Virus record (IMG/VR): IMGVR_UViG_3300029827_000002
Span: 1-58,698 of that record
Origin: a virus
Taxonomy: Duplodnaviria > Caudoviricetes
DNA: 58,698 bases
Strand: one strand, 5' to 3'
A program made the position numbers and the translations under genes. Below, piece by piece: positions 22,607 to 41,663 of the stretch; within the stretch, counting starts at the first letter, position 1; each line of letters opens with the position of its first letter. Below the pieces are notes generated by a model. That model was given only the letters and a program-made list of their open reading frames with translations, searched no databases and was not told the origin of the DNA.

Positions 22607-23308
22607 TTAATCCATATATCCAGCTTTTCTTCTTATCAAATAATTCATATCTACACTATTTCCATTTGGTTTATTTGATCCAGCGTTTTGATCATCTCCA
22701 CCAGATTGAGGGTCTTGATTATTACTATCATTATTACCAGAATCTAATAAATAAGGTTTGTCTTTAATTAATGCTTTCAATGAATTTTCAATACCAAGAA
22801 CTTTTCCATTATCGTCAATGGATACATCATCTTTATCCATTAAAATAAAAGCAGCTTCAGGGTCTCTAATTTTTAATTTACTTGCAATGCTAATGACTTT
22901 AGATTGAATTAAAAACTGATTTGATCTGTTTGTTGCTTCAATCAATTTTTTGTCACTTTCTTCTTTTTCTAATTTAAGTCTTTCAAGCTCACTTAAACTT
23001 TCTTTTTTCTTTTCGGCTTCAAGTTCTTCTCTAGTTTTCTTAATAGCTTTATTAATTCTGTTTTTCAAAAGATTGTCAAATTCTGCTTGTGACTTAAAAA
23101 TAACTTGTCCACTTGAATTATTTCCATCTTCTCCATTTCCGTCATTTCCATTTTCACTATTTGAATTTTCACCATTTGTGTTATCTTGATTTTCGCTATT
23201 TTCATTTTCTCCATTTTCACCTTCTGGAATGCTCAACACTGGAACTATTGGAAATAAAAAACTAGTAAACAATATTTTCTTAAATCTTTTGAATTTTCTT
23301 AAAATCAT
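22607..23308 (-). CDS. Capsid scaffolding protein
   Basis: Acidic low-complexity N-terminus, FKSQAEFD, coiled coil, LIKDKPYL; directly upstream of the capsid gene. Confidence 0.85.
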   Translation of the reverse strand: MILRKFKRFKKILFTSFLFPIVPVLSIPEGENGENENSENQDNTNGENSNSENGNDGNGEDGNNSSGQVIFKSQAEFDNLLKNRINKAIKKTREELEAEKKKESLSELERLKLEKEESDKKLIEATNRSNQFLIQSKVISIASKLKIRDPEAAFILMDKDDVSIDDNGKVLGIENSLKALIKDKPYLLDSGNNDSNNQDPQSGGDDQNAGSNKPNGNSVDMNYLIRRKAGYMD

Positions 23309-23789: not shown

Positions 23790-24896
23790 TTAATTATTCC
23801 CTCTTTTTTCTATAAATTTTATAGCTTTGTAAATTTCTTCTCTGAATAAAGCTGCATTATTCATATAGAATTCATTTACATCTTTATATTTATTCAATTT
23901 TAAAATTATGCTTTTTAATCCAAGAGTCCTTAAACCTTCATCAAGCGATTCCCTAGCTATTTCAGAAGGCATTTTTTTATTCGGCTTTTCTGGATTTCTT
24001 TGATCATTATCAAAGCAAATAAAGAATTTTACATTGTTTTCTTTTAATTGATCAATAAATTCTTTAATAATATCTAAGAATTTATTAACCATTGTTATAG
24101 AATTCAAGGCTATTCCTTTACAATCGATACATTCAAACGATAATGCATCGAAAATGCCTTCTGTTATAAAAAATATGTCATTCTTCTGTGAATGCCTAAT
24201 ATAACCAGCATTCCAAATTTTTAAAGGAAGTCCTTTTAGGTTTAAAGTCTTTTTATTTTTTTTATTTAAATAGTCATCCCTTCTTAGGATGACATTTACT
24301 ACTTTTTTATTTTCCCAAACAGGAATTATGTTTTGATAACTCCACAAATTATATACTTGTGGTAATAATTCTTTTGGAAAAATCTTTCTTGGATCATCAC
24401 AAATTATTTTATAATGTTTTAAGATATTATCATTTTTAATGTTTCTTCTATAAAAATAATAATATCTTTTTGATAAAGAGAAATATTGTAGTATAATATC
24501 AGTTAGATTATGATTAACATTTTTAAATTCTTTTTCTTTAGTAGATTCATTGTTTTTATTGCTTTTTTCTTTAGTTTTATAGGTATAATTAATAGTAGGG
24601 TTTTGACACCCTACTATTTCAATGCCTTTTTCTATTATTAAAGTGAAATCTTTTTTAATGTTATAACCTTCTAATTCAGCTATAACATTAAATGCATCAC
24701 CTTTAATGCCACAATGACAACAACAAACGTTACCATTTATTGATAGATCATTGTCTGGTTTATTATGTCTATAAGGAATACATTGCCAATTATATTTTCC
24801 TTCTTTTGCTCCATAATAAGTCAATATTTTTTCCAAATTATTTCTTATCAAATCCTTTTGAGTTTCAGTATAAATTTTTTTAGTTTCAGTTTTCAT
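23790..24896 (-). CDS. DNA primase (Zn finger + TOPRIM)
   Basis: CIPYRH...CHCGIKGD, FITEGIFDALS, CFDND and KDVNE motifs. Confidence 0.9.
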   Translation of the reverse strand: MKTETKKIYTETQKDLIRNNLEKILTYYGAKEGKYNWQCIPYRHNKPDNDLSINGNVCCCHCGIKGDAFNVIAELEGYNIKKDFTLIIEKGIEIVGCQNPTINYTYKTKEKSNKNNESTKEKEFKNVNHNLTDIILQYFSLSKRYYYFYRRNIKNDNILKHYKIICDDPRKIFPKELLPQVYNLWSYQNIIPVWENKKVVNVILRRDDYLNKKNKKTLNLKGLPLKIWNAGYIRHSQKNDIFFITEGIFDALSFECIDCKGIALNSITMVNKFLDIIKEFIDQLKENNVKFFICFDNDQRNPEKPNKKMPSEIARESLDEGLRTLGLKSIILKLNKYKDVNEFYMNNAALFREEIYKAIKFIEKRGNN

Positions 24897-24907
24897 GATA
24901 TATTCTC

Positions 24908-25546
24908 CTAATCTTCATTTAATTTTATTTGTATTTCTGGATTACTTAGACAAACTCCATCAAAAAGTAATCCATCATCATTGCTAATCGAACCATCTTC
25001 GCAAATATAAAGATGATCTTTTAATAGATTAAATAATATTTTTTTATTAGTATCAATATAGTCTTTTTCTAATTTATTTCTGATCAAAAAATTATATAAT
25101 CTTTCTTCATCAGATATTATAATTTCTTGTTTCTTAAAATATATTTTTGCCGATGGTAGAGAATAAATTAAATAACCATTTTTAGATAAAATAGTATTTT
25201 CATTAATTACTTTATTAGTAATAGTTTCGAAGAGTAAAGCCCAAATTTCATGTTTTAAAAATTCTTCTTTATCTCTACCTTCTTCAGCTATTTCATTTAT
25301 ATATCTTTCATTTTGTTTTATCATTTCTTCACAAGTTCTTAAATATAAACTTGCTCTAATCTCCATAACTGCATTACTAGAATTGCTATATTTAGTAAAT
25401 TTTCTAATATTATTGTTATACATTTTTATTCTATAATCATAAAGATTTTTTCTTTTTTTAAACTTATATAATTCACTTTTATAATCCAATATCATTTCTT
25501 CAATTGTTACGTTTAAAGCTATTTGTTCATTTGAAATCATTATCAT
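24908..25546 (-). CDS. Mu Gam-like host-nuclease inhibitor
   Basis: Long N-terminal coiled coil, then LPSAKIYFKK...DEERL...DYI...LLK. Confidence 0.6.
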   Translation of the reverse strand: MIMISNEQIALNVTIEEMILDYKSELYKFKKRKNLYDYRIKMYNNNIRKFTKYSNSSNAVMEIRASLYLRTCEEMIKQNERYINEIAEEGRDKEEFLKHEIWALLFETITNKVINENTILSKNGYLIYSLPSAKIYFKKQEIIISDEERLYNFLIRNKLEKDYIDTNKKILFNLLKDHLYICEDGSISNDDGLLFDGVCLSNPEIQIKLNED

Positions 25547-25914: not shown

Positions 25915-26079
25915 TTGAATAATAAAAAAGAGAAAAAAACATATATACATTTTTGCATAGATAAAAAATTTAAAGAAGAGATTGAAATTCTAGCAAAAAA
26001 TAAAGGGTTACCGACTGCAAGCTATATAAAAATGATATTAAAAGAAAAAATACAAGAACATAAAAATAAAAAAGGGTAA
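25915..26079 (+). CDS. Ribbon-helix-helix (CopG-like) protein, 54 aa
   Basis: Manual translation TYIHFCIDKKFKEEIEILAKNKGLPTASYIKMILKE; GAGGTG RBS with TTG start. Confidence 0.7.
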   Translation: MNNKKEKKTYIHFCIDKKFKEEIEILAKNKGLPTASYIKMILKEKIQEHKNKKG

Positions 26080-26146
26080 TATTAACCCTTTTTTATTTTG
26101 TATTATTATTTTTAAGGAAAAAAGAGGTCATCATCACTCTTTTTTT
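26066..26146. terminator. Two hairpins between convergent units
   Basis: AAAAAAGGGT...ACCCTTTTTT and AAAAAAGAG...CTCTTTTTT. Confidence 0.65.
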
Positions 26147-26215: not shown

Positions 26216-26482
26216 TTATTTATATAATTTGTCAATATATATCTGTTTATATTGTCTTATTATATTATTATTAGGAGGTAGATAAATAATTAATAAATCT
26301 ATTTGTTTAGAATTTAGATTAAAAAATTCCAAAGGTCTTCCTCCCTTAGTACCTTTGCCATATCTTAATATACAAGAATTCATATTACCAAATTGTGTAA
26401 AATCATTTTTATATTTTTTTAAATATCTTATTATTGCTTTATGAGATATTTTTAATTTCTCTGATAATTCAATACTAGTCAT
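26216..26482 (-). CDS. Rha-family regulatory protein
   Basis: MTSIELSE...HKAIIR...GGRPLEFFNLNSKQIDLLI. Confidence 0.75.
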   Translation of the reverse strand: MTSIELSEKLKISHKAIIRYLKKYKNDFTQFGNMNSCILRYGKGTKGGRPLEFFNLNSKQIDLLIIYLPPNNNIIRQYKQIYIDKLYK

Positions 26483-27612
26483 TATATTTTTAACCTGTTA
26501 GCTAATTCTAATATTTGTTTTGCTGCGGTTTTACCTGCTTTACCCCTTAAGTCGGTTGGATAAATTTCTTCTATAAATTCTTTTTCTAAATCTTTCATTC
26601 CATCAGATAAAGCAATATCAAATAATTTAATCATGTTTTTTATATCTTTTGCATGATAACCAATTTTTTTAGAATAAATTTGATATTCAAAATTTGCTGG
26701 ATCAGATTTAAAATGATTCATTGTATCTTTTGCACAAATCCAATCAGGAAAAATTACAGGCTTGCCTAATATCCATGCTTCGTATAAAGTTGATCCTGCA
26801 TCTGCGATAACAATATCGGCTTCTAATAATTCATTTGTTGTCGGTAATTGTTTCTTTTTATTATGCATTTTACTTGTTGGATGTAAGCTTGTTACTAAAT
26901 CATAATCTTTTGGAATTTGATCTAAATATCTTAAAAATGCTGGATAACTTGATCTCCCTTTATTTTTCGAATGATATCCATGAGTAGGAGCCCATAGAAT
27001 TTTAGGTTTTAAATTCTTTTTAATTGAATTCTTATTAATATTAATTAATGGATCTAATTTAGTATATCCACAGATAAATATTTCTCCCTTATATCCAGTA
27101 TTTCTCATTCTATTTTCCCATGCTGGGCCCGAAACAAAAGCATATTTATAATCCTTAATTTTATCTCCTTTCCAATAATTTTTATCACCTATTCCATGTG
27201 AAAAGAAAATATCATTTGGGCCAACTGGAGCTTTACCCTGTTCGTTAATTCTAGCAGAATTAAAAAATCTAATATTCATTCTTGTTAGTGGAATTTTTGA
27301 ATATCCAATATCTTTTTTGGGAAGATGTTTCATTATTGGATTTGATAAAGCCTCTATTGCATGAATGTAGGCTTCGCCTGCATGTTGGCTCATGTTATCG
27401 TAAACAAAATTTATTTTGTTTCCTTTTTTAAGACCATGTCTTTTCATATATGCTTGATTATCGAGCTTTCCTACCCTTAATCCTCTATTACTTCTTATTT
27501 CTCTAAATATCTCGTTTGAATCGACTCTAATCGTAATCTCTTCAAAAGGTTCAAATCTATATTTCCCAATTATTATTGTATAATGAACTCTATTTAAAAT
27601 ATTTACTAACAT
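26482..27612 (-). CDS. CDP-glycerol/ribitol phosphotransferase (TagB/TagF family)-like protein
   Basis: SHG, GYTKLD, ILWAPT, LHP and ADIVIADAGSTLYEA...KPVIF motifs. Confidence 0.85.
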   Translation of the reverse strand: MLVNILNRVHYTIIIGKYRFEPFEEITIRVDSNEIFREIRSNRGLRVGKLDNQAYMKRHGLKKGNKINFVYDNMSQHAGEAYIHAIEALSNPIMKHLPKKDIGYSKIPLTRMNIRFFNSARINEQGKAPVGPNDIFFSHGIGDKNYWKGDKIKDYKYAFVSGPAWENRMRNTGYKGEIFICGYTKLDPLININKNSIKKNLKPKILWAPTHGYHSKNKGRSSYPAFLRYLDQIPKDYDLVTSLHPTSKMHNKKKQLPTTNELLEADIVIADAGSTLYEAWILGKPVIFPDWICAKDTMNHFKSDPANFEYQIYSKKIGYHAKDIKNMIKLFDIALSDGMKDLEKEFIEEIYPTDLRGKAGKTAAKQILELANRLKI

Positions 27613-28265
27613 TATTTTTTTACCTCCAATATTTGTCCATTAAGCAAATTATCACTTTCTATCAAATTACAAATAAATTTGCCTATTTCATGAGGTTGAA
27701 GCATATTTTTAAAATCATCATCGGGCTCTAATTCATGTCTCATATCTGTATTGACTGCCCCAGGGCAAACAATATATATTTTTATTCCATATGGTTTTAA
27801 TTCTTCTGACATTGATAAACTAAAATTAATTAAAGCTGCTTTTGTTGCTGCATAAATTGACCTACCTGGCCTTGCTCCTAAGCCAGCAGTTGAAGCAATA
27901 TTAATTATTTTACCTTCTATCTTTTTATTAATGCAAAATTTTACATATTGTTTAGTACAATTAAAAACTGCATTAAAATTAACATTAAATTGTTTATTAA
28001 TTGATTTAATACTAGTTTCAAAAATACTTCCTTGTTCTGCAATTCCAGCATTATTAATAAGTGCAATTGGATAATATTTCTTATCTTCTTTATTAAAATC
28101 ATCAAAATTTTTTATAAATTCTTCAAATTTTTTAAAATTTGTTATATCAAAATCGCTCCATCTTGAAATTGGATAATAAAGATTTTCTTTGCTTCTATAA
28201 CACCATTCTTTAGCAATTGCAGCCCCAATTCCTCTACTACTACCAGTTATTATAATATTACTCAA
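27612..28265 (-). CDS. SDR oxidoreductase (probable ribulose-5-P reductase partner of IspD/TarI)
   Basis: TGSSRGIG, NNAG, S...YAATK motifs. Confidence 0.9.
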   Translation of the reverse strand: MSNIIITGSSRGIGAAIAKEWCYRSKENLYYPISRWSDFDITNFKKFEEFIKNFDDFNKEDKKYYPIALINNAGIAEQGSIFETSIKSINKQFNVNFNAVFNCTKQYVKFCINKKIEGKIINIASTAGLGARPGRSIYAATKAALINFSLSMSEELKPYGIKIYIVCPGAVNTDMRHELEPDDDFKNMLQPHEIGKFICNLIESDNLLNGQILEVKK

Positions 28266-28941
28266 TTTTATTACCCTCCTTATAATTTAAGATTGCCTCG
28301 GCAATTTTAAGATCAATAGGATAAGTAATTTTAATATTTTCTCTTTCACCATGAAAAATTATTTTTCTTTTAAAAGGAATTTCGCCAGATATTTCTTGAA
28401 ACTTATAAATTAAGTCCATATCATCCGTAGAATTTTGAGAAATCATATTTGTATGGACTTTATAAAGCTTTTGATTATCATATTTTTGTGGCATTTGAAC
28501 ACACCCAAAATCATTTCTATCATAAGAATTTCCTAATATATCAATTACACTGGCACTTGATAAGTCTATAGGTACTACACAATCGCCATCAGCTTCTATA
28601 ACTTTTTTTATTAAATTTATCGACATAAAAGGTCTTACAGCTTCACAAATTAGCAAATTTTTTGTCTTGACATGTTCTAAGCCATTATAAACTGATTGCT
28701 GTCTAGTTTCCCCAGCTTCACATATATATCTATTTTCAATATTATATTCATTTAAAAATCTTATTACATTGGAATTATCTAAATCACTTGGAATTATAAT
28801 TGTTCCAATATCTTCAATCTTTCTTAAGGTTTCTAATCCATATATAAAAATAGGTTTTCCTTTTAGTCTAGCAAATTGTTTAGGATATCCTAATTCAGCT
28901 CTTTTTCCCTTTCCTCCTGTAAGATAGATTACATCAATCAT
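28258..28941 (-). CDS. IspD/TarI-family polyol-phosphate cytidylyltransferase
   Basis: LTGGKGKR...PKQF, GETRQQSVYNGL, EAVRPF, QMPQ and NIKITYPIDL motifs. Confidence 0.9.
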   Translation of the reverse strand: MIDVIYLTGGKGKRAELGYPKQFARLKGKPIFIYGLETLRKIEDIGTIIIPSDLDNSNVIRFLNEYNIENRYICEAGETRQQSVYNGLEHVKTKNLLICEAVRPFMSINLIKKVIEADGDCVVPIDLSSASVIDILGNSYDRNDFGCVQMPQKYDNQKLYKVHTNMISQNSTDDMDLIYKFQEISGEIPFKRKIIFHGERENIKITYPIDLKIAEAILNYKEGNKIE

Positions 28942-29061
28942 ATTTTTACTCCTTTTCTTTTTTCCAAAATTTTTCTATTAATTCCTTATTATCAATTAAT
29001 ACTTGATATAAAGATGATTCTAAAATAGATATAATTTTATATTCTATGCCACCAATTTTAA

Positions 29062-29895
29062 TCATAATTCTTGTAATTTTTCCTTCCATAAATCTATTAT
29101 TTGATTATCAATAATTATTCTTTTATCATTTTCAAAAACATTAAGTAAAAATTTAATTTGTTTTTTATAATCATGTGGAACTTTTGGTGTTTTTCTTTTT
29201 TGTCCGTCTTTTCTTATTAATGTTTTATTAAAATTATCCCATTCTAAATAATCAGGAATAAAATAACTTTTGTGATATTCACCAGAATAAAAATCACAGC
29301 CTAATATTCTTAATGATTTAATATTAAATTCTAATAAATGCATAATCGCAATTGTAGACATATTTGGTTCAGTTCCATCAAGTTTTATCCTTAAGTCATT
29401 TACAAAAAAATCAAAGACAGTATTCAAAGTTATTCCTTTTGTCTTTTCTGCCATAACATATTTTCTATTTAATAAAACAAATCGATTTAATGCTCTTTTT
29501 TCTTTTTCATTGCCATATACAGGGTCACGTTTAGCAACAATCCATTTTATTTTATCTCTATCTAATAGTTTAATCCTACCTGTATTATATCTATTTGCAG
29601 CCCATTTCAAGGATCGCATAATGGCTCCCGTATGATATAATACATCTGTTCTATTTCCGATATCTTCATGTATGAGTGAATAATCTTCATGTAATGGATT
29701 TATTGGAAATGTATTATTAAGTCTTACAACAATATCATAATTATTAATTTCCTCTCCTTGTTTTGATCCTTCTAAAATATTACTAGGCCCAACTATAATA
29801 ATATTTTTTCCTTTTAAATAATTTGAATAAAAGAAAGCATGTTTAAAATAATTAATTGGTCTTACACGTTTTGTTACTATTTTTCTTCTTGCCAT
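29062..29895 (-). CDS. GT29 sialyltransferase-like glycosyltransferase
   Basis: Sialylmotif L-like IIVGPSNILEGSKQGEEINNYDIVVRLN; S-like PNMSTIAIMHLL...ILGCDFY; late HDY. Confidence 0.8.
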   Translation of the reverse strand: MARRKIVTKRVRPINYFKHAFFYSNYLKGKNIIIVGPSNILEGSKQGEEINNYDIVVRLNNTFPINPLHEDYSLIHEDIGNRTDVLYHTGAIMRSLKWAANRYNTGRIKLLDRDKIKWIVAKRDPVYGNEKEKRALNRFVLLNRKYVMAEKTKGITLNTVFDFFVNDLRIKLDGTEPNMSTIAIMHLLEFNIKSLRILGCDFYSGEYHKSYFIPDYLEWDNFNKTLIRKDGQKRKTPKVPHDYKKQIKFLLNVFENDKRIIIDNQIIDLWKEKLQEL

Positions 29896-29905
29896 AATAA
29901 TTCTC

Positions 29906-30589
29906 CTAATCTTTTATAATTCTTATAATTTCAAAAACTTCGGCATATTCTTTTAAAATAATACTTCCATTTATACTTGCTTCATTAACAATTTTGTCAA
30001 TACTTCTTGGATGAGGATTTTCTTTAATTTCATCTTTATACATTTTTAAAGCCGCAATTTTTTGATCTAAAATATCCTTAGATATATTATTAATAAAATT
30101 AGGCTTAAATTTTTGTAAGCTCGGAGCTTGCCATTCTGTAGATGATAAAGTTTTAAAAGAATAAATTTCTTTTATTTGATTATTACATGGTCTTGCGGCT
30201 GTTATTGTAGATGTAAAAGTTAGTCTATGATCTATATTTAAATCACTGTAATTATGAGTATAAATAATATTTGGTTTAATAGAAAATAACCATGATTCAA
30301 TGATTTTTATAATTTCTAATATTGAAATTGTATCAAACTTTTGATCTGGAAGATTTGCAAAATAAATGTTATAATTTAAAAATTTTGCGACTTCTTCAGA
30401 TATTTTTCTTAATTGAAGAATTTCTTTATTTATATTTGTATTATCATTTTTATATCTTGAAGTAATACCAGTACTTAAAATTAATACTGAGACTCTATCA
30501 CCATTTTTTATATGTTTTATAAGCGTTCCACCTACACCAATTAATTCATCATCTGGATGCGCCACAATTGCTATTACATTATTTTTCAT
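29906..30589 (-). CDS. PIG-L/LmbE-family N-acetyl-sugar deacetylase
   Basis: AHPDDE...GGT, YTH..DL..DH and HPRS motifs. Confidence 0.92.
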   Translation of the reverse strand: MKNNVIAIVAHPDDELIGVGGTLIKHIKNGDRVSVLILSTGITSRYKNDNTNINKEILQLRKISEEVAKFLNYNIYFANLPDQKFDTISILEIIKIIESWLFSIKPNIIYTHNYSDLNIDHRLTFTSTITAARPCNNQIKEIYSFKTLSSTEWQAPSLQKFKPNFINNISKDILDQKIAALKMYKDEIKENPHPRSIDKIVNEASINGSIILKEYAEVFEIIRIIKD

Positions 30590-31256
30590 TTTTTATCGTC
30601 CTTTCAATTTTTACATCTGCAATTATATGATCATTTTTTAAACTTGCTCTTGAAAATTCAATTTTATATTCACCAAATTCAATATATGCTTTTGGATATC
30701 CTTCACCATCAAGCATTCTAATAAAATCAAATATCTTATTTAAATTAAATTCTTTTTCAATTCTATTATTATAATTTCTTGTATAACTTGTAACTTCTCC
30801 AATTTGATCTATAGGTTTTAATTGTTCATTGATTATTTTAGGAATCATTTTATTAAAAATAATATTTGAAATTCTAATTAATATCTCATCACAAGTTCCA
30901 TTTAAACAAAGATTTTCCTTTAGATAAATAGGTCCAGAATCATAATCTTTAATTATCTTAATTGCAGATATTTTAGTATGACTTATATTATCTAATATTT
31001 GATTTTGAATTGGACTGCCACCTCTGCCATAAGGCAAATCCGTACAATGAAACAATATACAATTAAAATTCTCATAAACTTCTTTTGGAATAAACCATGA
31101 CCAATGAATAAAAAACACATAATCAGGTCTGAAGTTAACTAAAGTTTCTAATAAATAATCTTTTTTTGTAATTATTTGTAATTCTTTGTATGTATAATCT
31201 AAAGATTTAGCTTTTTCTATATGACATTTTTTTATTGTTGCTATTAATATTTTCAT
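30579..31256 (-). CDS. Sugar N-formyltransferase (Fmt-like)
   Basis: FFIHWSW, FHCTDLPYGRGGSPIQNQI, DSGPIY and IRMLDGEGYP motifs. Confidence 0.9.
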   Translation of the reverse strand: MKILIATIKKCHIEKAKSLDYTYKELQIITKKDYLLETLVNFRPDYVFFIHWSWFIPKEVYENFNCILFHCTDLPYGRGGSPIQNQILDNISHTKISAIKIIKDYDSGPIYLKENLCLNGTCDEILIRISNIIFNKMIPKIINEQLKPIDQIGEVTSYTRNYNNRIEKEFNLNKIFDFIRMLDGEGYPKAYIEFGEYKIEFSRASLKNDHIIADVKIERTIKNEK

Positions 31257-31259
31257 AAT

Positions 31260-31820
31260 TTATTTATTTCTTTCTTCAAAATAATAATGATTGAAATTAA
31301 AATATAACGAATTAAAAAAAGATCCATTAAAAAACTTTCTACTTGGTAAAATTGTGCTATAGCCGTTATATTTTTTAATCATTTTTTCCCAAAATTCTAT
31401 ATTAGGATTACATTTATAACATTCACCATAAATATTTTGTAATCTCATATTTTTAAAACCTTCTTTTAAAACTAAACTTAATACTTTCGATCCATATCCT
31501 TTGCTAATATATTTGGGGCCAATAGTTAAAGCTATTTCGGAATTTCCATTTTCCCACTGAATTTTATCAAGACCAGTATATCCAATAAAAGTATCTATAT
31601 CTTTGTCTCTTTCTCCTTCAGCCTCTTCTTTAAAAATTCCCCAATATCTGGCATTAATACTTCGATTGTTTATAACATTTTTCAAAAAATCTATCTGCAT
31701 ATCACTTGTAAGTAAATACGGTGTTCTATAAATACCTTTTTTGGTATTTTCATTTCTCCATATTCTTAATTTTTCTAAATTTTCAAAATTTAAAACATCT
31801 AAATAAATATTATCTTTCAT
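31260..31820 (-). CDS. pseH: GNAT N-acetyltransferase (PseH-like)
   Basis: LRIWRN, IGYTGL, SKGYGS motifs; context in the pse cluster. Confidence 0.8.
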   Translation of the reverse strand: MKDNIYLDVLNFENLEKLRIWRNENTKKGIYRTPYLLTSDMQIDFLKNVINNRSINARYWGIFKEEAEGERDKDIDTFIGYTGLDKIQWENGNSEIALTIGPKYISKGYGSKVLSLVLKEGFKNMRLQNIYGECYKCNPNIEFWEKMIKKYNGYSTILPSRKFFNGSFFNSLYFNFNHYYFEERNK

Positions 31821-32475
31821 ATGTTCTCCTTATTTTTAATATTTTTATGATATCTTCTACTCTTTTAAAGTCTTCTATTGTATCAACACTCCATTTATAA
31901 TCAAATTTAAAAACAGAGTTAACCTCATAAATTTTAAATTTCTTAGGATTATTTTTTATAAATCTTGTTACATGTTCCCTATCTTCTTTATCTTCAGCAA
32001 CATTGTTAATATATGCTAAAACGGATGACTTCATGATTTCTACATCAAGTCCGCTAGGTAATCCATTTTTACCTCTATTATGTGTAAAATCAGCATTATT
32101 TAATAAATGTTTCTGTATAACTTCATCAATAACTTTAGGATAAAACCCTAACATTGGACAATCACTTGTTATTCTTACAACATTTGTTATATTTTCTTGT
32201 GTAATATTTTGTATATAATTTAATGCTGCATAATACCTATTTAATACATCTTCTTCATTTCCTTCATGAGAATAACAGAAACATTTATCTGAATATAATT
32301 TTGAAAAAACACTATTATCTGAAAATGGATAAATTATTCCTGTAAAATGACTTAATTTACTTTGTTTTGCCCCTTCAATTGTATAACTGGTCATTGGATG
32401 ACCAGCCATACTTTTTATACATTTTCTTTGAAGTCTATTTGATTTTAATCTGGCTTGAATTAAAGTTATTATCAA
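31810..32475 (-). CDS. Nonulosonate cytidylyltransferase (SpsF/PseF-like)
   Basis: IQARLKSNRL..K, EEDVLNRY, VRITSDCP, GLDVE, REHVT and SVDTIEDF motifs. Confidence 0.9.
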   Translation of the reverse strand: MIITLIQARLKSNRLQRKCIKSMAGHPMTSYTIEGAKQSKLSHFTGIIYPFSDNSVFSKLYSDKCFCYSHEGNEEDVLNRYYAALNYIQNITQENITNVVRITSDCPMLGFYPKVIDEVIQKHLLNNADFTHNRGKNGLPSGLDVEIMKSSVLAYINNVAEDKEDREHVTRFIKNNPKKFKIYEVNSVFKFDYKWSVDTIEDFKRVEDIIKILKIRRTYER

Positions 32476-33135
32476 CTACAACACTTCCTTTAATATATCT
32501 GGTGTTCTTGCAAATTCCCCAGCATCTAAACCTGTCGAAGTTTTTAACTTGTAATGCCATTCGATTATTTTAGGTTTAAATCTATTAAACAGTGCAAAAT
32601 TATTTGTATGATCTGAAATATTATTCCCAATTTTAATATCTAATTTTAAATATTCTTGAACACTAGCAGGATATTGACTTATACACCAAAATTCTTCAAG
32701 TTCTTTTGGAACTTTTACGCAGCCTAACCCAGATATATTTTTATTTCCGAATTTAATTGTTAAATCATTTGTTTTTGAAATATATACTGGAATTTCTTCA
32801 GGTATAAAATCTATTAAATAATCTAATTCTCTTCTATTTGCTATTTTCACGAATGGAATATCATAACCAAGTAAAAATTCTAATGATGGTCTATCAAAAA
32901 TAGAAGCGGTTACTTTATATCCTAATTGATTTCCATATTCATAAGCATAATTAAATGATTCTTCAGTTAAAGGAATATTCGCTCCACAAGCTTTGAATAA
33001 TTGCCATTTTATAATTATTTCATACTTGCCGCTGTCAATAGCCTTCAATTCATCATACATTCTTTTTATTATTCTTTCGTCGTTTCTACATGTATTTCCA
33101 GACCCAAAATCCAATATTATTGTTTTATTTTTCAT
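32476..33135 (-). CDS. Minimal NeuB/PseI-family nonulosonic acid synthase
   Basis: IKWQLF, ASIFD, FVKIA, CISQYPA, SDHT and IIEWHY motifs; no C-terminal SAF domain. Confidence 0.8.
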   Translation of the reverse strand: MKNKTIILDFGSGNTCRNDERIIKRMYDELKAIDSGKYEIIIKWQLFKACGANIPLTEESFNYAYEYGNQLGYKVTASIFDRPSLEFLLGYDIPFVKIANRRELDYLIDFIPEEIPVYISKTNDLTIKFGNKNISGLGCVKVPKELEEFWCISQYPASVQEYLKLDIKIGNNISDHTNNFALFNRFKPKIIEWHYKLKTSTGLDAGEFARTPDILKEVL

Positions 33136-33685
33136 AAGTGCCAAGAACACCTCTTTCTTTTCTTTTATTTGTTCTCGATCTTAAAGCTACAATAGCAGCT
33201 TTTAATCCATCTAAAGCAATATTATTTTCATTACACTTAAGTTCTGAGTTTTGAAAAGTTTCTAAAACATCAATACAAATTCCGATAATATCAGGAAGGA
33301 AAACACCATTTAAATTAGTTTTATTTATAGGTCCATTTTGAAAATGTATTCCACATAAAAGATTATTATTTTCAACACTTTTAATTAAATAATTTTTCGA
33401 AGAATTATTCTCATTTTCATCTTTTTCAATATATGTATGTTCTTCAGTCAATAATTCATTCCTTAATCTTGTTAAGTTCCCATTGATCTTTTTATAAGCT
33501 TTAAATGGCTCTTCTGGACTCCATGATAAGTAATCATCTGAATATCTAACAGAATATCCTTTTTTATTATCTGGAAGACCAGTATTGATTTTTTTATCTC
33601 CATATTTAAAATCGGCATATTCTCCATAATTCATTTCACAAGCTTCAATTTCTTTTGTTCCAAAATATTTTTCAAATTTTTTCAT
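33125..33685 (-). CDS. Tad1-like anti-defence sponge fused to an N-terminal phage domain
   Basis: C-terminal IHFQNGP...NGV...D.L..FQ...EN..AL...R...R.ERGVLGT matches the recalled Tad1 pattern; N-terminal YFGTK...GYSVRYSDDYLSWSP. Confidence 0.75.
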   Translation of the reverse strand: MKKFEKYFGTKEIEACEMNYGEYADFKYGDKKINTGLPDNKKGYSVRYSDDYLSWSPEEPFKAYKKINGNLTRLRNELLTEEHTYIEKDENENNSSKNYLIKSVENNNLLCGIHFQNGPINKTNLNGVFLPDIIGICIDVLETFQNSELKCNENNIALDGLKAAIVALRSRTNKRKERGVLGTYEK

Positions 33686-33716
33686 AGTTTAAATCATCCT
33701 TTTTTATTTATTTTTT

Positions 33717-34055
33717 TTACTTCTTTTCAAAAAAATTATTTAATAATTTTCTTATTTTTATTAATTCATTCAAATTATTTTCCATATAATCAAGAGTAAC
33801 AATAAACATATCTATTATTAATTCTTGCGTATTACTAGTATAAAGAAAATTTTCTCCACCTTTATCGTTATTTTTTAAACCTATTCTATAGCTTTTATTA
33901 TTAAATTTACATAATTCCGAAAACTCATGAACACTACAAACATTTAAGGTACTTTTATTCTTTTTTAAATAATTATTTAATTTTTCTTTTAGTAGATATT
34001 CACGAATTTCTTTATCTTTTGGCTTTTCTTCAATAAATCTAAATATTTTAAACAT
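33717..34055 (-). CDS. Hypothetical protein
   Basis: ORF with AAGGA RBS. Confidence 0.55.
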   Translation of the reverse strand: MFKIFRFIEEKPKDKEIREYLLKEKLNNYLKKNKSTLNVCSVHEFSELCKFNNKSYRIGLKNNDKGGENFLYTSNTQELIIDMFIVTLDYMENNLNELIKIRKLLNNFFEKK

Positions 34056-34073
34056 TGTTTTTATTATTCCTTT

Positions 34074-34244
34074 CTATTCTTGACAATCAACGCAATAATT
34101 TTCCCATTCATCTTTATCATTCTTTTCAACTGTCCAATTGTTTTCTTTTGCATAATTTAAAGCGGCTTCAAAAGTTGAAAAACTTTCATTCTCACTGCAT
34201 CCATCACAAATTATATACCAATTTCCTTTAATTTTATTAATCAT
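34074..34244 (-). CDS. Small Zn-ribbon protein (56 aa)
   Basis: Manual translation ...ICDGC...NW...WENYCVDCQE; GAGG RBS. Confidence 0.6.
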   Translation of the reverse strand: MINKIKGNWYIICDGCSENESFSTFEAALNYAKENNWTVEKNDKDEWENYCVDCQE

Positions 34245-34632
34245 TATTTTTGCCTCTATAGACTAAAGATTTCCAATCATATTCTAAATCAAAGAATCTA
34301 TTTAAAAATTCTCTAGCTAATTCATTTGATTTTTCATGATCAATATTACAATTATCCATAAAAAAACATGAAATATTTGAATGCCACCCCAAAAGTAAAT
34401 CGTCATCTTCGGATTCAAGCCAATATTTCATTTGTGATAATGTGAATTTAAATTCACAATTTCTAAATTCTGGTTTATCCCTATTTTCAATTGTTGATAA
34501 ACACAATTCAATTCCATTATACATACCAATCATATAATCGCTTTTTAAACTTTCAGCCTGGTTTTTCTTTGTTTCTTTTAATTTTCTTAAATTTTCCTTG
34601 AAATTTATTATTTCAAATTTTTCATTATTCAT
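34237..34632 (-). CDS. Hypothetical protein
   Basis: YMIGMYNGIELC motif; overlaps the pseC stop codon. Confidence 0.6.
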   Translation of the reverse strand: MNNEKFEIINFKENLRKLKETKKNQAESLKSDYMIGMYNGIELCLSTIENRDKPEFRNCEFKFTLSQMKYWLESEDDDLLLGWHSNISCFFMDNCNIDHEKSNELAREFLNRFFDLEYDWKSLVYRGKNND

Positions 34633-35732
34633 TTTAAATTTAAACCTTCTTTCATAAATTCATTAATACAATTAATGATATATTCTTGTTGTTCAAATAA
34701 TAAGTTATAATACAATGGAATACTTATTATTTGATCGGCTACTTTTTCAGTATTAGGACATTGTTTTGAATAATCAATTTTGTCCAATGGATCATAATAA
34801 AATGAATTTTTATATATTGGAGGGAAATGTATAACACATTGAATTTCCCTTTTTTTCATGTAATTAATAAATTTATTTCTATTTTTTCTATTCTTAACTT
34901 TAATTACAAACAAATGATAAACATGAATTCTTCCCTTTAATTGCTTTAATTTTTCACATTTTAACTTATCAATATATTTATCAGCCAACATATATCTAAA
35001 TGTTTGAAATTGACAATGCTTTGTTTTAAATTGACTTAATACAAGTGCTGCATTTATTTCAGACATTCGATAATTATAGCCTAAAAGCTCCATCATACCT
35101 TCTTCATTTCTTCCATGATTTCTAAATAATTTAACTCTATAATCTAATATATAATCATTTGTTAATAAAGCTCCACCTTCACCAGATGTTATATGTTTTG
35201 CTGGATGAAACGAATAACAAACAATATCAGGAATTGTATTATCAGCGATTCTATTAATTCCGCCAAAAGAATGACACGAATCACTAATAAAATATAATTG
35301 GTTATTATCGCAAATTTCTTTTATTGCTTTATAATCAGCTAATTGACCTGCATAGTCCATGGAAATTATTGCTTTGGTTTTATTTGTGATTAATTTTTTT
35401 ATACTTTCAGGATCAATTAAAATAGTATCTGGATCGATATCCGCAAAAACAGGTGTTCCTCCACAATAACTTACACAATTTGCAGTTGCTACAAAAGAAA
35501 TTGAAGGAATAATTACTTCATCCCCAGGTTTAATTTTTATTGCCATACAAGCAGCATGTAAGGCAGATGTACCACTATTAAGAGTTTTACAAAATTTATA
35601 ACCTGTATAGTTACTCAATTCATTCTCAAATTCTTTTGTAATTTCTCCTTGTGTTATATTATCGCTTGTTAATACTTTATTTACCGCTTTTATATCATGC
35701 ATATCAATAAAATGCTTTGCATAATTAATCAT
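34629..35732 (-). CDS. pseC: DegT/DnrJ PLP aminotransferase (PseC-like)
   Basis: NSGTSALHAA, SFVATANC, DSCHS, SFHPAKHITSGEGG and LGYNYRM motifs. Confidence 0.92.
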   Translation of the reverse strand: MINYAKHFIDMHDIKAVNKVLTSDNITQGEITKEFENELSNYTGYKFCKTLNSGTSALHAACMAIKIKPGDEVIIPSISFVATANCVSYCGGTPVFADIDPDTILIDPESIKKLITNKTKAIISMDYAGQLADYKAIKEICDNNQLYFISDSCHSFGGINRIADNTIPDIVCYSFHPAKHITSGEGGALLTNDYILDYRVKLFRNHGRNEEGMMELLGYNYRMSEINAALVLSQFKTKHCQFQTFRYMLADKYIDKLKCEKLKQLKGRIHVYHLFVIKVKNRKNRNKFINYMKKREIQCVIHFPPIYKNSFYYDPLDKIDYSKQCPNTEKVADQIISIPLYYNLLFEQQEYIINCINEFMKEGLNLK

Positions 35733-35964
35733 GATTAAGCAAGTTCTCCTTTTTTCTTTTTACTTGTGCTTCTTTTGCTATACTAAATTGTTCTTTTAAT
35801 TGGTTTAATTCTTCTTGTAAATAACTTTTTTCAAGTTTTAATTGTTTAATATTCTCAATCAATAATTCATTAGTAATTTTTAAATTTTCATTTTCTTTTG
35901 AAATCATTACAATATGATCAATTTCTAATTCTTCATATGTCATTTTTTTACAATTTTCATTCAT
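35725..35964 (-). CDS. Coiled-coil protein, duplicate copy A
   Basis: Near-identical to 35961-36212. Confidence 0.65.
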   Translation of the reverse strand: MNENCKKMTYEELEIDHIVMISKENENLKITNELLIENIKQLKLEKSYLQEELNQLKEQFSIAKEAQVKRKKENLLNHD

Positions 35965-36236
35965 AATAATTTCCTCATTTCTTCAATAGATAAGTTCTCC
36001 TTTTTTCTTTCTACTTGTGCTTCTTTTGCTTTGCTAAATTGTTCTTTTAATTGATTTAATTCTTCTTGCAAATAACTTTTTTCAAGTTTTAATTGTTTAA
36101 TATTCTCAATCAATAATTCATTAGTAATTTTTAAATTTTCATTTTCTTTTGACATTGCAATATGATCAATTTGTAATTCTTCATATGTCATTTTTCTATA
36201 ATTTTCATTCATAATAATTTCCTCATTTCTTCAATA
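35741..36236. repeat. Tandem duplication of a ~250 bp unit
   Basis: 35741-35988 vs 35992-36236; the unit includes the last codons of pseB (SIEEMRKLL). Confidence 0.9.
35961..36212 (-). CDS. Coiled-coil protein, duplicate copy B
   Basis: Leucine-zipper-like; C-terminus LSIEEMRKLL shared with PseB. Confidence 0.65.
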   Translation of the reverse strand: MNENYRKMTYEELQIDHIAMSKENENLKITNELLIENIKQLKLEKSYLQEELNQLKEQFSKAKEAQVERKKENLSIEEMRKLL

Positions 36237-37159
36237 CTCAAAATATTATTCTCATTATTACTTGCATATGTAAATTGATTATGATTTATCCATAATTCTG
36301 GTAGTTTTCCATAATAAAGCTTGTAAAATGTATCGTAAATCACAATATTTCTTGATTCTTCATGACTAACTAATGTTTCATTGATTTTTTCGCCTTTTCT
36401 TAATCCTACAATTTTTATTTCAGCATCTTCCTTTATGGCTTTTATTAAATCAACTATCTTTAAAGTAGGTAATTTAGGAATAAATATTTCTTGACCTTCC
36501 ATAATTTCTAAAGAAGATAAAACAAATTTTGCGGCATTATCTATAGTTGTCCAAAACCTAGTCATTTCATTATCAGTTAAAGGAAATTTGCCACCTTCTT
36601 TGGCTATCTTCTTGAAAAAAGGAATAACTGATCCTCTAGAGCCAATAACATTTCCATATCTTACAATCGAAAATATAGTTTCATTATCGCCAGAATAATT
36701 ATTTCCATCAATAAACATTTTCTCCATACATGCTTTTGTACAACCATATAAATTTATAGGATTTACGGCTTTATCTGTAGAAATTGCCAATACTTTTTTA
36801 ACTTTTCTATCAATAGCAGCATCAATTATATTCGCTGATCCTATAACATTCGTTTTGACAGCTTCAAAAGGGTTATATTCGCATGAAGGAACATGCTTTT
36901 GAGCGGCTGTATGTATAACATAATCAATTTCATTAAATGCTCTATACAATCGATCTTTATCTCTTATATCACCAATAAAAAAAGATAATTTTGGATTATT
37001 TTTAAATTCTTTTTTCATTTCTGATTGTTTATATTCATCCCTAGAATAAATATAAATTTTTTTGATATGTTTATCACTATTTAATAATTGTTTTGTAAGT
37101 TCTTTTCCAAGAGTTCCTGTTCCACCTGTTATTAGAATTTTTTTATAAAACTTATTCAT
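36209..37159 (-). CDS. pseB: UDP-GlcNAc 4,6-dehydratase (inverting)
   Basis: TGGTGTLG, YSRDEYKQ, KHVPSCEYNPFEAVKTN, STDKAVNPINLYG and VRYGNVIGSRGSVIPFF motifs. Confidence 0.95.
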   Translation of the reverse strand: MNKFYKKILITGGTGTLGKELTKQLLNSDKHIKKIYIYSRDEYKQSEMKKEFKNNPKLSFFIGDIRDKDRLYRAFNEIDYVIHTAAQKHVPSCEYNPFEAVKTNVIGSANIIDAAIDRKVKKVLAISTDKAVNPINLYGCTKACMEKMFIDGNNYSGDNETIFSIVRYGNVIGSRGSVIPFFKKIAKEGGKFPLTDNEMTRFWTTIDNAAKFVLSSLEIMEGQEIFIPKLPTLKIVDLIKAIKEDAEIKIVGLRKGEKINETLVSHEESRNIVIYDTFYKLYYGKLPELWINHNQFTYASNNENNILSIEEMRKLL

Positions 37160-37990: not shown

Positions 37991-39178
37991 TTACTCCTTT
38001 CTAATGTGCCTCCCAATTTGTTCCCTAACATAATTTCTATTAAGGAATTTATTATCTTTTAAATGTTCTCTTTGTTCTTTTTGCCAATATTTAACTTTAT
38101 TATCGGCAATATTTTTAACATTATTATCAAGACTTCCAACTGATCTTCTTTTCCAATTGCGAATATTTCTTTCAATTTGTCTTTGTCTTAACTGAGCATT
38201 ATAAGATATTTTTTGGGCTTCATTATATCCATATTGATCAATTAAATCTTGTTCTGCTTTGTCTACTCTTGGCGGCAATGGTTCTTTACCTTCAAACCAT
38301 AGACTTACATCATGCTTACAATTAGGGTGAAATAATCCTTGAGTTTCTGCATCATCTATTGATTCATAAACAGGATGGCGTTCTATGCTTAAAGTTATAC
38401 CTTCGTAAGGAGTGCATAATTCACAAGCTCTAAAATGACTTGATACAACGACTAAAGTATATCCTCCTTCAGCATATCTATTTAAATTAGCCTGTAAAGA
38501 ACATCTTCCTGAGACAGTACGACCGACCATTTCGCAATAAGTATCTATTGAATATTTTGCTCCATTTTTATAAGTTATAGTTTGAATTCCTTGTTTTGCT
38601 AGTTGATCCATCATTTCTTGAGAGTATTTTATCCTTGTGTAAATATCACCTTCTTTGAAATACTTCTCACCTGCTTGTATCGCTGCATTTCGATAAATAT
38701 CCTCAGCTTTTCTTAGTATTTGAATTGGTTGATTATCTAAGTTGTAATATGCTGCATCTCTAAAAGTTTTATAGAAAGGTACATGTTCAGATATATTTTT
38801 AAATAATGATAAAGTCTCGCTACTTAAGGCTGGAATTGCGATTGGTGGAGGACTTTCAATTAAAAAAGATCCATTTGTAATCTTCTTTATAATTGATGCA
38901 GATAAATTATTATATCTTAAATCTGCTTTTGCATGGTTTATTCCTGCGATATATGCTTTTGCTAAGTCTTTATTTGCCCAACTTTTCCAATCTTTATTGA
39001 ATGTTTTGGCAATTGTTGTTACTTCTGTAATATACGCTTTTTTATAATTAGTAACATTTGTTGGATCATTATTTATTTTTTCTAGTAATTTTTTTGTAGC
39101 AATCAGCATTCCAAAAACTACATTTTGAGCAGACAAATATAAATTTTTTCCATAATCTTCATATCTATCAATGTTCAT
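37991..39178 (-). CDS. Minor capsid protein (A118 gp4 / phage minor capsid 2 type)
   Basis: VSSHFRACELC, GLFHPNCKH and QRQIERNIRNWK motifs. Confidence 0.9.
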   Translation of the reverse strand: MNIDRYEDYGKNLYLSAQNVVFGMLIATKKLLEKINNDPTNVTNYKKAYITEVTTIAKTFNKDWKSWANKDLAKAYIAGINHAKADLRYNNLSASIIKKITNGSFLIESPPPIAIPALSSETLSLFKNISEHVPFYKTFRDAAYYNLDNQPIQILRKAEDIYRNAAIQAGEKYFKEGDIYTRIKYSQEMMDQLAKQGIQTITYKNGAKYSIDTYCEMVGRTVSGRCSLQANLNRYAEGGYTLVVVSSHFRACELCTPYEGITLSIERHPVYESIDDAETQGLFHPNCKHDVSLWFEGKEPLPPRVDKAEQDLIDQYGYNEAQKISYNAQLRQRQIERNIRNWKRRSVGSLDNNVKNIADNKVKYWQKEQREHLKDNKFLNRNYVREQIGRHIRKE

Positions 39179-41228: not shown

Positions 41229-41663
41229 TTAATTCACTCCTTCTAAATTTTCAATAAATCTATCAATAATTTCTCCTACAGTAAACTTATTTTTATATAT
41301 TTTTTTATTTTTAACTACTTCTCCCTTTTTATAATTTTTATAATATACTTCTCTGACAATACATTTACGAGCATCTATCCAATTATTATAATTATCTATA
41401 TAATGTTCGGCTATTATTAAAATAGAATTTTTCACTTTGTTTAAATCAAAAATTAATCTTGTTAATGCTAATTCTTGTCCAATAGGCAATTTTGTTTCTT
41501 TGTATTTAATTTCTAATAATATATATGCTTTATTTTTATATTCTATTAATCCATCCATATCAGTTGGTGTAATCTTATTATAAACAAGATTTTCAAAAGT
41601 TATAATTTGTTGTTTTCTTCCAATATGATTAATTTTACCTCTATTATTTTCATGATTTAACAT
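41229..41663 (-). CDS. Putative PD-(D/E)XK-fold nuclease-like protein
   Basis: PTDMDG...LLEIKY...GQ..AL pattern. Confidence 0.55.
   Translation of the reverse strand: MLNHENNRGKINHIGRKQQIITFENLVYNKITPTDMDGLIEYKNKAYILLEIKYKETKLPIGQELALTRLIFDLNKVKNSILIIAEHYIDNYNNWIDARKCIVREVYYKNYKKGEVVKNKKIYKNKFTVGEIIDRFIENLEGVN

Follow-up and report, generated by a model that had tools for sequence, protein, structure and literature searches.

The window analysed here is an entire IMG/VR virus record (IMGVR_UViG_3300029827_000002, Caudoviricetes; one contig of 58,698 bp, from an uncultured phage of anoxic sediments) in which a cassette of 11 enzyme genes, all on the minus strand at 26482-37159, follows the portal and minor head genes. 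By their family assignments the enzymes appear to form two donor branches, one of the CMP-pseudaminic acid (CMP-Pse) type and one of the CDP-polyol type, each with a plausible transferase. Three of the genes, coding for an IspD/TarI-family cytidylyltransferase, a short-chain dehydrogenase/reductase (SDR) and a divergent TagF-like transferase (the trio), appear to be a core trait of a phage clade that co-diverges with the capsid gene, and the sugar module upstream of the trio appears to be swappable. Our preferred reading, to which we assign a probability of about 0.42, is that the phage carries in this block a functional glycan pathway of soluble enzymes, with a virion protein as acceptor and the major capsid protein (MCP) as first candidate. 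A preliminary description of the window had listed the 11 co-oriented enzyme genes, the small phage-type open reading frames (ORFs) among them and the two donor branches with matching transferases; the analysis bore out all three, the small ORFs being of 83, 79, 131, 56, 112 and 186 residues.

To place the cassette among related phages, IMG/VR was scanned with the MCP as seed, independently of the cassette, and the best 80 of 122 relatives were kept. Hidden Markov models for the TagF-like protein, IspD and SDR were run on the ORFs of these 80 loci. The clade comprises the 49 loci whose MCP is at least 59% identical, and the outgroup the 31 loci with an MCP at most 53% identical. The TagF-like gene is encoded in 25 of 25 clade loci that hold at least 5 kb upstream, in seven of nine that hold 3-5 kb and in two of 15 that hold less than 3 kb. 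In every case it shares the strand of the MCP gene and lies 0.8-8 kb upstream of it. At any upstream length (nine loci hold at least 5 kb), the outgroup has none of the three genes (TagF-like, 0/31; IspD, 0/31; SDR, 0/31), and in outgroup locus L070 portal, minor head, scaffold and MCP genes follow one another without an insert. Minimal clade members such as L063 have the trio alone between minor head and scaffold. The clade spans a GC content of 0.23-0.57, and the identity of the TagF-like, SDR and IspD proteins to the window copies tracks MCP identity (Spearman 0.81-0.83, n = 25-29, the points being non-independent). For the synteny check that the preliminary description had called for, this places the trio upstream of the MCP in all 25 clade loci with at least 5 kb. 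Its view that such a phage would be a rarity was not upheld, the TagF-like family having 237 protein clusters (E ≤1e-3). Among the 120 of these clusters listed, none has a precomputed Pfam domain and the source names read only "hypothetical protein"; most TagF-like clusters sit on contigs of at most 62 kb.

The MCP of the clade has a specific insertion at residues 63-70 (22367-22390, minus strand), consisting of an invariant NPGP followed by a Ser/Thr-rich stretch. All 47 clade MCPs contain it, and of 30 outgroup MCPs about 97% have a deletion in its place. Because the flanking sequence is strand-like, these residues may form an exposed hairpin tip, which would make them a candidate acceptor loop. 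No Ser/Thr-rich virion protein besides the tape measure was found.

The trio occupies the 3' end of the cassette. The TagF-like protein (26482-27612, minus strand; 376 residues) is the clade-defining member and a putative GT-B transferase, presumed to use a CDP-polyol. It has a partial match to the NCBIfam TarB model (7.2e-7), and its ESM Atlas neighbours carry PF04464 with a score of 0.96. Two distant homologues approach the PF04464 cut-off of 22.1 bits (L021, 21.9 bits; L022, 17 bits). When a profile of 41 TagF-like sequences was compared by hhalign with three genuine PF04464 domains, they aligned over 184 columns (Prob 92.5, E 5e-7), with the WAPTHGY motif of the TagF-like proteins set against the APTWR motif of the PF04464 domains. 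The alignment supports homology between PF04464 and a predicted donor-binding C-terminal GT-B domain. Residues 1-170 aligned to nothing in the profile searches, and the sole PDB match of the profile was a UDP-GlcNAc 2-epimerase (E 0.32). We infer a CDP-polyol donor because IspD and SDR genes are its constant neighbours. The IspD/TarI-family polyol-phosphate cytidylyltransferase (28258-28941, minus strand) matches PF01128 (1.7e-27, 97.1 bits) and scores 86.5 bits against the ribitol-5-phosphate subfamily NF001183, which has a cut-off of 166. Its PDB matches are alike for IspD (1.2e-19), TarI (1.7e-12) and human ISPD (4.5e-11), so that ribitol is not separable from other polyols. The SDR (27612-28265, minus strand; PF00106, 4.6e-37), which probably carries out the step from sugar phosphate to polyol phosphate, always adjoins the IspD and TagF-like genes in relatives.

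The modules upstream of the trio are swapped among relatives. The window phage, L002 and L003 combine Pse genes with a formyltransferase, a PIG-L deacetylase and a GT29-like transferase. In L004, L015, L016 and L017 the Pse genes go with a KpsS-like protein instead; the KpsS-like proteins match PF05159, and the L004 copy also matches the NCBIfam "BFO_1060 family glycosyltransferase". The sugar-module slot of L008 (6651-9602) holds a MurB-like reductase, a GT2 enzyme, a polysaccharide pyruvyltransferase and a GT32-like protein, and that of L018 (4266-8703) a ferredoxin/F420-dehydrogenase-like protein, a GT2 enzyme, a methyltransferase, a GT32-like protein, PseC and a short NeuB, without PseB or a cytidylyltransferase. 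L010 has only a GT32-like protein upstream of the trio, and L063 and L064 have no upstream sugar module.

The GT29-like (sialyltransferase-like) transferase of the window (29062-29895, minus strand; 277 residues) matches PF00777 (2e-9) at 37.7 bits, above the gathering cut-off of 23. A profile built from 22 homologues matches eight GT29 structures from animals, ST3Gal1, ST6GalNAc2, ST6Gal1 and ST8Sia3 among them (1e-4 to 2e-2), over a stretch that we take to be the sialyl-motif-L region. GT29 enzymes are known mainly from animals and their viruses. A CMP-nonulosonate donor, CMP-Pse in this case, is presumed for the window enzyme because the Pse genes adjoin it and a KpsS-like gene takes its place in relatives. 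KpsS1 of Acinetobacter, kin of KpsS, is a proven pseudaminyltransferase according to the available text of PMC12887879, and CMP-Pse is described as usable by sialyltransferases in that of PMC11040635. Since KpsS1 transfers Pse and sialyltransferases accept CMP-Pse, the replacement fits GT29-like and KpsS-like proteins being interchangeable nonulosonate transferases.

The remaining cassette enzymes, all encoded on the minus strand, are those of the Pse branch. The PseB-like inverting UDP-GlcNAc 4,6-dehydratase (36209-37159; PF02719, 1.1e-100) has TIGR03589 as the best of 46 families, at 406.2 bits (E 7.9e-122), 1.5 bits below the cut-off of 407.75. For the PseC-like DegT-family sugar aminotransferase (34629-35732; PF01041, 7.1e-97) the best model is TIGR03588 (320.6 bits, 1.2e-95), the cut-off of 423.5 not being reached. 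The putative CMP-nonulosonate synthetase, a PseF/SpsF-like cytidylyltransferase (31810-32475), matches PF02348 (CTP_transf_3; 5.6e-17, 62.7 bits, cut-off 22.6) and the cytidylyltransferase 6oew in the PDB (2e-16), and scores 30.2 bits against 205.7 for the PseF equivalog. Three further enzymes could edit acyl groups. One is a GNAT N-acetyltransferase (31260-31820; PF13302, 2.1e-10), which may have a PseH-like role and scores 17.9 bits against the PseH model TIGR03585 (cut-off 93.1). The second, a short formyltransferase (30579-31256; PF21553, 8e-26), has 1zgh as PDB match at 1.1e-67 and sugar N-formyltransferases at 3e-4 to 5e-3, and may act like PseJ to yield an N-formyl Pse derivative; PseJ-type N-formylation of Pse has been described (PMC11040635, available text). 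The third is a PIG-L/LmbE-family de-N-acetylase (29906-30589; PF02585, 3.1e-21; PDB diacetylchitobiose deacetylase, 2.9e-6).

The NeuB/PseI-like nonulosonate synthase (32476-33150, minus strand) is short, its 224 residues covering only the TIM-barrel part. It reaches 20.6 bits against PF03102 (3.4e-4, cut-off 22.1) and 19.1 bits against TIGR03586 (6e-4, cut-off 340), where the alignment stops at profile position 245 of 327; its best match in a PDB profile search is SpsE (E 0.47). All 30 of its ESM Atlas neighbour clusters are NeuB, the closest being viral and 212-225 residues long, and the viral short-NeuB clusters have 77-189 members. As all neighbours are NeuB and the closest are viral and equally short, the gene is a conserved viral form rather than a broken one.

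Short NeuB genes extend beyond the clade. A scan for them returned 44 loci, in 23 of which the available flanks lack a BLAST match to the portal, minor head, scaffold, MCP and TagF-like proteins of the window. Most of these 23 carry PseB and varied PseC, GNAT and cytidylyltransferase genes in a different order. Across loci L116-L149, SAF-less NeuB proteins of about 200-240 residues are found in other phage lineages with a GC of 0.33-0.52. In L145 (GC 0.51) an SPP1-type portal, which shares 42-43% identity with portals of Bacillus phages, is followed by PseB through GNAT to NeuB, four unassigned ORFs and a major head protein that differs in type from the MCP of the window, so in an unrelated lineage, too, the portal and capsid genes enclose Pse genes. 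The Pse genes of L128 stand directly upstream of a Mu-like large terminase. Neither an 881-residue neighbour in L141 nor a 331-residue ORF of L145 has a match in cultured phages, and five L145 ORFs compared by hhalign with the TagF-like, GT29-like and KpsS-like profiles gave probabilities of at most 1%. The only TagF-like homologue in a cultured phage is that of Thermobifida phage P1312 (L103 10845-12774; 31% identity over 63% of the query). It lies outside the head module, beside an O-methyltransferase, at a point past the tail genes and the gene for a large "phosphodiesterase" tail protein.

We also examined whether the block belongs to the phage and is maintained. The gene order is the same in the independent IMG/VR contigs L001, L002, L003 and L004 and in contigs of 56-60 kb binned into metagenome-assembled genomes (MAGs) under six different labels, and the junctions are all spanned by contigs from three DNA runs, which belong to different studies. 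A chimeric assembly, which the preliminary description had named as a possible refutation, is thereby excluded. The run contigs have local variants, in which the 131-residue ORF is lost or the formyltransferase/PIG-L/GT29 segment is replaced. Compared with L002, the ratio of nonsynonymous to synonymous substitutions (dN/dS) is 0.15-0.42 for every cassette gene; the TagF-like gene is at 0.15, minor head at 0.17 and MCP at 0.10. The cassette is under purifying selection, and unequal dS across its genes points to mosaic exchange within it. We give almost no credence to the idea that host DNA was mis-assembled onto a phage contig or that the block is a decaying, functionless passenger island. The genes do look cellular, two relatives are flagged as provirus in IMG/VR, the NeuB-like gene falls short of full length and no PseG is encoded, but the shared order across IMG/VR, MAG and run contigs and the dN/dS of every gene argue otherwise, as do the conserved viral form of the short NeuB and a cassette GC that matches the rest of the genome (about 0.23-0.27, around 0.25 overall). 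The record is also 100% complete by CheckV, and direct terminal repeats occur in a 99%-similar IMG/VR record that measures 58,839 bp.

The cassette is part of a single co-directional array that runs from about 46.5 kb down to 26.2 kb, with genes mostly overlapping or abutting. Its order is ParB-like, a TET-associated glycosyltransferase (TAGT), small terminase, putative large terminase, ParB-Dam, portal (39735-41228, minus strand; phrog_533, 8.8e-87), minor head (SPP1 gp7-like; 37991-39178, minus strand; PF06152, 1.9e-37; phrog_581, 1.3e-52), small ORFs, cassette and, as last gene of the transcription unit, a Rha-like ORF of 88 residues (26216-26482, minus strand; phrog_2657, 6e-6; phrog_518, 2e-5). 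A bidirectional intrinsic-terminator-like hairpin with a 15-bp stem (26063-26099) stands 3' of the cassette. Beyond it are a plus-strand ORF, a 212-residue ORF, a Toprim protein and a 105-residue ORF, and then the head scaffolding protein (22607-23308, minus strand; phrog_4866, 1.9e-15) and the MCP (21575-22576, minus strand; phrog_10, 2.6e-26). The cassette adjoins portal and minor head but is not contiguous with scaffold and MCP. The position between minor capsid and scaffold given in the preliminary description and the setting in a packaging and head array stand, with the correction that the terminator and further genes separate the cassette from the scaffold gene.

If the cassette works as its families suggest, the pathway would be active in infected cells in parallel with packaging and head genes. 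UDP-GlcNAc would be converted to a CMP-Pse derivative, possibly N-formylated, by PseB, PseC, the acyl-editing set of GNAT, PIG-L deacetylase and formyltransferase, the short NeuB and the cytidylyltransferase; the UDP-sugar hydrolase (PseG) step would come from the host or be done by an unrecognised ORF. In the other branch the SDR would reduce a sugar phosphate and IspD would activate the product to a CDP-polyol, of which CDP-ribitol is the textbook case. The TagF-like enzyme, as the conserved anchor step, would transfer polyol phosphate to the primary acceptor, and the GT29-like enzyme would then cap it with the nonulosonate, as KpsS-like or GT2/GT32-type enzymes may do in relatives. The outcome would be a teichoic-acid-like, nonulosonate-tipped coat on the particle, with an outer sugar that varies between related phages. 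A more specific version for the whole clade, described as one of sediment siphophages, in which the TagF-like enzyme links polyol phosphate directly to Ser/Thr of the clade MCP loop and swappable transferases cap it with Pse derivatives or other sugars to give strain-variable virion "serotypes", seems to us doubtful.

Phage glycosyltransferases are known to serve cell-surface remodelling, virion decoration and DNA glycosylation (PMC13477221, available text). For virion decoration there are precedents among mycobacteriophages. In Corndog-type phages the genes between portal and capsid protease code for an O-methyltransferase, a GlcNAc-transferase and two further glycosyltransferases, a set for which the authors propose capsid modification (PMC4351075, available text), and Che8 and Rita of cluster F1 are reported to bear glycans on the capsid that form a "glycan shield" (PMC11256854, available text, citing Freeman 2023). 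We rank a virion protein first because the trio is distributed like a core gene of the clade's head region and the clade MCPs bear the NPGP and Ser/Thr-rich insertion, because the family genomes are without integrases, because the unrelated lineage of L145 has Pse genes in the slot where Corndog-type phages hold glycosyltransferases, and because of the capsid glycans of Che8 and Rita.

Several observations weigh against a virion-protein acceptor or a complete pathway. To our knowledge, all characterised TagF-family, GT29 and KpsS-type enzymes modify sugar or polyol hydroxyls of glycans or lipid-linked precursors, never protein side chains. The minimal clade members encode no priming glycosyltransferase, so a protein target would need chemistry unknown for the TagF family. 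The window TagF-like protein has no match to PF04464 at E ≤0.01, nor in six frames at E ≤10, and the hhalign match is confined to its C-terminal half. The MCP loop is one of several clade-specific MCP differences, a strong terminator and four non-glycan genes part the cassette from scaffold and MCP, and two of the five family genomes checked for integrases are labelled provirus in IMG/VR, a label that may be a response to the cellular-looking cassette. Of the CMP-Pse pathway in the preliminary description, PseB-like, PseC-like, GNAT, NeuB-like and cytidylyltransferase proteins are present, but the synthase stops at the end of the TIM barrel with no SAF domain, and the best score for the PseG model TIGR03590 is 13.8 bits (cut-off 153.55), inside the TagF-like ORF. 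With PseG absent and the NeuB SAF-less, this branch may fall short of a full pathway or yield a different sugar.

A quite possible alternative, if one we hold at below even odds, is that the enzymes remodel the host envelope. At the inner face of the membrane they would act on lipid-linked precursors of teichoic acid, capsule or secondary cell-wall polymer, which a host exporter would move out; the benefit would be superinfection exclusion, masking of receptors such that progeny are not lost on debris, or carrier or lysogenic conversion. Wall teichoic acid and group-2-capsule synthesis employ these enzyme families: IspD, SDR and TagF-like protein parallel a CDP-ribitol synthase with a TagF-like polymerase, and PF05159 is the family of the KpsS-like proteins. 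Enzymes of the TagF/TarB type and wall-teichoic-acid glycosyltransferases attach peripherally to the membrane and have no transmembrane (TM) helices. No cassette protein has a 19-residue Kyte-Doolittle window at or above 1.6, which fits such enzymes equally, and host exporters could act on their products. The preliminary description was thus correct that TM segments are missing from the cassette and flippases and polymerases from the genome, while its conclusion that the acceptor is cytoplasmic does not follow. An existing host glycan as acceptor would also leave trio-only members with no need of a priming transferase, and the swappable sugar modules resemble surface-polysaccharide diversity. 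Published cases include phage enzymes that alter a Pse-containing capsule or teichoic acid of the host (PMC12053666 and PMC6586298, available text) and TarP (Pyle et al. preprint, available text), and the authors of P1312 assume that its TagF-like ORF27 interferes with host teichoic acid. The two provirus labels point the same way.

Against an envelope target, tyrosine integrase (PF00589) and serine recombinase or resolvase (PF00239) are absent in five of five family genomes, four of which are at least 90% complete. The trio is in 25 of 25 clade loci at a fixed place in the head array and co-diverges with the MCP across GC 0.23-0.57; known conversion genes, unlike the clade-wide trio, are sporadic and att-proximal. 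Among the 165 ORFs of the genome there is no multi-TM protein of flippase, polymerase or permease type, no Gtr-type protein and no ABC permease, and no Maf-type flagellin transferase was found. If only new polymer were changed late in a lytic cycle, the existing wall would presumably stay unaltered.

The preliminary description had also allowed packaged DNA as acceptor, and it had overlooked a gene that speaks for this, the TAGT (44764-45630, minus strand; PF20691, 1.2e-34, 120.5 bits, cut-off 27.5; phrog_842, 5.4e-69). With the cassette, the TAGT would build glycan or polyol phosphate on phage DNA bases around packaging, as protection from restriction. It is annotated "beta-glucosyl-HMC-alpha-glucosyltransferase" in phrog_842 and lies between a ParB-like gene and the small terminase, in the same array and 7.6 kb from the cassette. 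Phage DNA glycosyltransferases are akin to teichoic-acid and lipopolysaccharide enzymes and often lie near ParB, terminase and structural genes (Pyle et al. preprint, available text). However, the complete genome has no match at E ≤10 to Tet_JBP (PF12851), ThyS (PF00303) or C5-methylase (PF00145), so no known acceptor base would be made: an enzyme making hydroxymethyl-pyrimidine is missing. The TAGT is present in only three of ten family genomes (G000, G001 and G005) and thus does not explain the clade-wide trio; among the seven without it, of which five are at least 90% complete, are trio-only genomes and also G007, a genome with Pse genes and GT29. The available text of the Pyle et al. preprint never names nonulosonic, pseudaminic or sialic acids or CMP, and mentions ribitol only for TarP. 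We regard DNA as a very improbable acceptor. The TAGT appears to be an orphan DNA-type glycosyltransferase.

Small ORFs are interleaved with the enzyme genes. Two tandem paralogous coiled-coil ORFs of 83 and 79 residues, with no family match, lie between PseB and PseC (35725-36212, minus strand); their upstream sequence is identical and their first ~70 residues near-identical, indicating a tandem duplication. ORFs of 131, 56 and 112 residues (33717-34632, minus strand) likewise have no family match. The 131-residue ORF is polymorphic for presence and is dispensable: contigs of runs X1, X2 and X20 skip 34244-34654 and have the same 19 inserted letters. A 186-residue ORF (33125-33685, minus strand) belongs to no Pfam or NCBIfam family and is kept in close relatives, with 57% identity to the L002 copy and a dN/dS of 0.27.

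Other genes of the window were noted in passing. The Toprim-domain protein (368 residues) and the 212-residue protein, which is weakly Gam-like, lie at 23790-25546 (minus strand) and are found in many clade members, not all. ParB-N-domain proteins are encoded at 41650-42708 and 45627-46484 (both minus strand); one of them has a Dam-type N6-adenine methyltransferase fused to it, and this fusion stands between the putative large terminase and the portal. In the large-terminase position is a 485-residue ORF (42719-44176, minus strand) with no PHROG or Pfam match at the thresholds used and 51% identity to its L008 counterpart. A 488-residue protein (49498-50964, minus strand) with an LPD15 domain and a C-terminal DarA domain, of the kind that defends against restriction, is possibly a packaged anti-restriction protein. 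An FtsK/SpoIIIE-like ATPase with three hydrophobic N-terminal segments (52204-54033, plus strand) is encoded in a plus-strand, probably early, block.

The host of the window phage is not settled by its endolysin, which is of the Amidase_3 type. Ribosome-binding sites are strong and GGAGG-type, the genome has no tRNAs, and a scan for sigma-70-type promoters stayed at chance level (143 found, 148.7 expected). No cultured phage gave a megablast match to 19 kb of the window; the closest cultured portal relatives are Streptomyces phages at ~35% identity. Clade phage contigs L015-L020, 58-60 kb long, sit in MAGs labelled archaeon, Ignavibacteria, Clostridiales, Bacteroidales, Spirochaetes and Pacearchaeota. 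We rejected these labels as host identity and read the contigs as mis-binned, probably bin contamination by phage genomes. The metagenomes whose runs contain the cassette are from rhizosphere, marine sediment, wetland and salt marsh; 20 rows from 16 studies have at least part of it, and four runs have at least half of the sampled words. In X20, an RNA-library run, the region is on contigs of 31 kb and 17 kb at flat depth, which are probably carried-over DNA and no guide to transcription.

Among known systems, the Corndog (cluster O) cassette has its transferase genes in the same portal-capsid slot. Mycobacteriophage cassettes have phage-encoded sugar transferases expressed with structural genes, an arrangement known here from the genes. 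Those cassettes consist of transferases only and, as far as is known, draw on host nucleotide sugars, whereas the window phage also encodes the two donor pathways, for CMP-nonulosonate and CDP-polyol, and uses TagF-like and GT29-like/KpsS-like enzymes. With wall teichoic acid and group-2-capsule synthesis (TarI/TarJ, Bcs1; TagF/TarB/TarL, Bcs3) the window shares an IspD-family enzyme, a reductase and a TagF-like enzyme side by side, and APT-type and C-terminal donor-domain motifs that align. Unlike those systems, the set is phage-encoded, comes without linkage-unit enzymes or exporter and leaves PF04464 unmatched. Its reductase is an SDR rather than a TarJ-type zinc dehydrogenase; the Haemophilus Bcs1 reductase is also an SDR. 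Like the bacterial Pse pathway (PseB-C-H-G-I-F with KpsS1/GT118 or Maf), the window has enzymes for which the PseB and PseC models are the best matches, a GNAT, a NeuB-family synthase, a CMP-transferase and a formyltransferase fitting PseJ, with KpsS-like proteins in relatives; it differs in having neither PseG nor Maf, a SAF-less synthase of 224 residues and a GT29-like transferase. The TAGT beside ParB-like and terminase genes recalls phage DNA glycosylation (T-even phages; TET/5mYOX-associated glycosyltransferases) as set out in the available text of Pyle et al., but the window is without a 5-hydroxymethyl-pyrimidine enzyme and the TAGT is unlinked to the cassette across the clade. In prophage surface conversion (TarP, Gtr clusters, Acinetobacter epaA/epaB, Pse O-acetyltransferases), phage genes likewise alter host teichoic acid, O-antigen or Pse-containing capsule, as far as the available sources describe it. 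There, single enzymes of temperate phages act on host-made polymers, compared with 11 enzymes, no integrase, a clade-wide trio and a head-module position here.

In the main text of open-access papers we found no phage described with a Pse pathway and a CDP-polyol module. Compared with the known kinds, the apparent novelties are two self-made donor chemistries, a phage-specific TagF-like family, a phage GT29-like enzyme, a SAF-less NeuB and a conserved core with swappable modules. The clade goes beyond the examples found in that donors and transferases are both encoded and the polyol module is kept in the head region across hosts of very different GC, with the outer-sugar module swapped like a serotype locus. 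If the capsid is the target, these would be the first phage particles to bear a nonulosonate or polyol phosphate and the TagF-like enzymes would have a new type of acceptor, which would matter for how phages adsorb to surfaces, for grazing and immune recognition, and for the engineering of particles. If the host envelope is the target, apparently non-integrating phages would carry an unusually complete kit for rewriting the cell surface. With either target the cassette offers compact soluble enzymes for glyco-engineering, among them a NeuB of 224 residues, a GT29-like enzyme of 277 and a TagF-like enzyme of 376.

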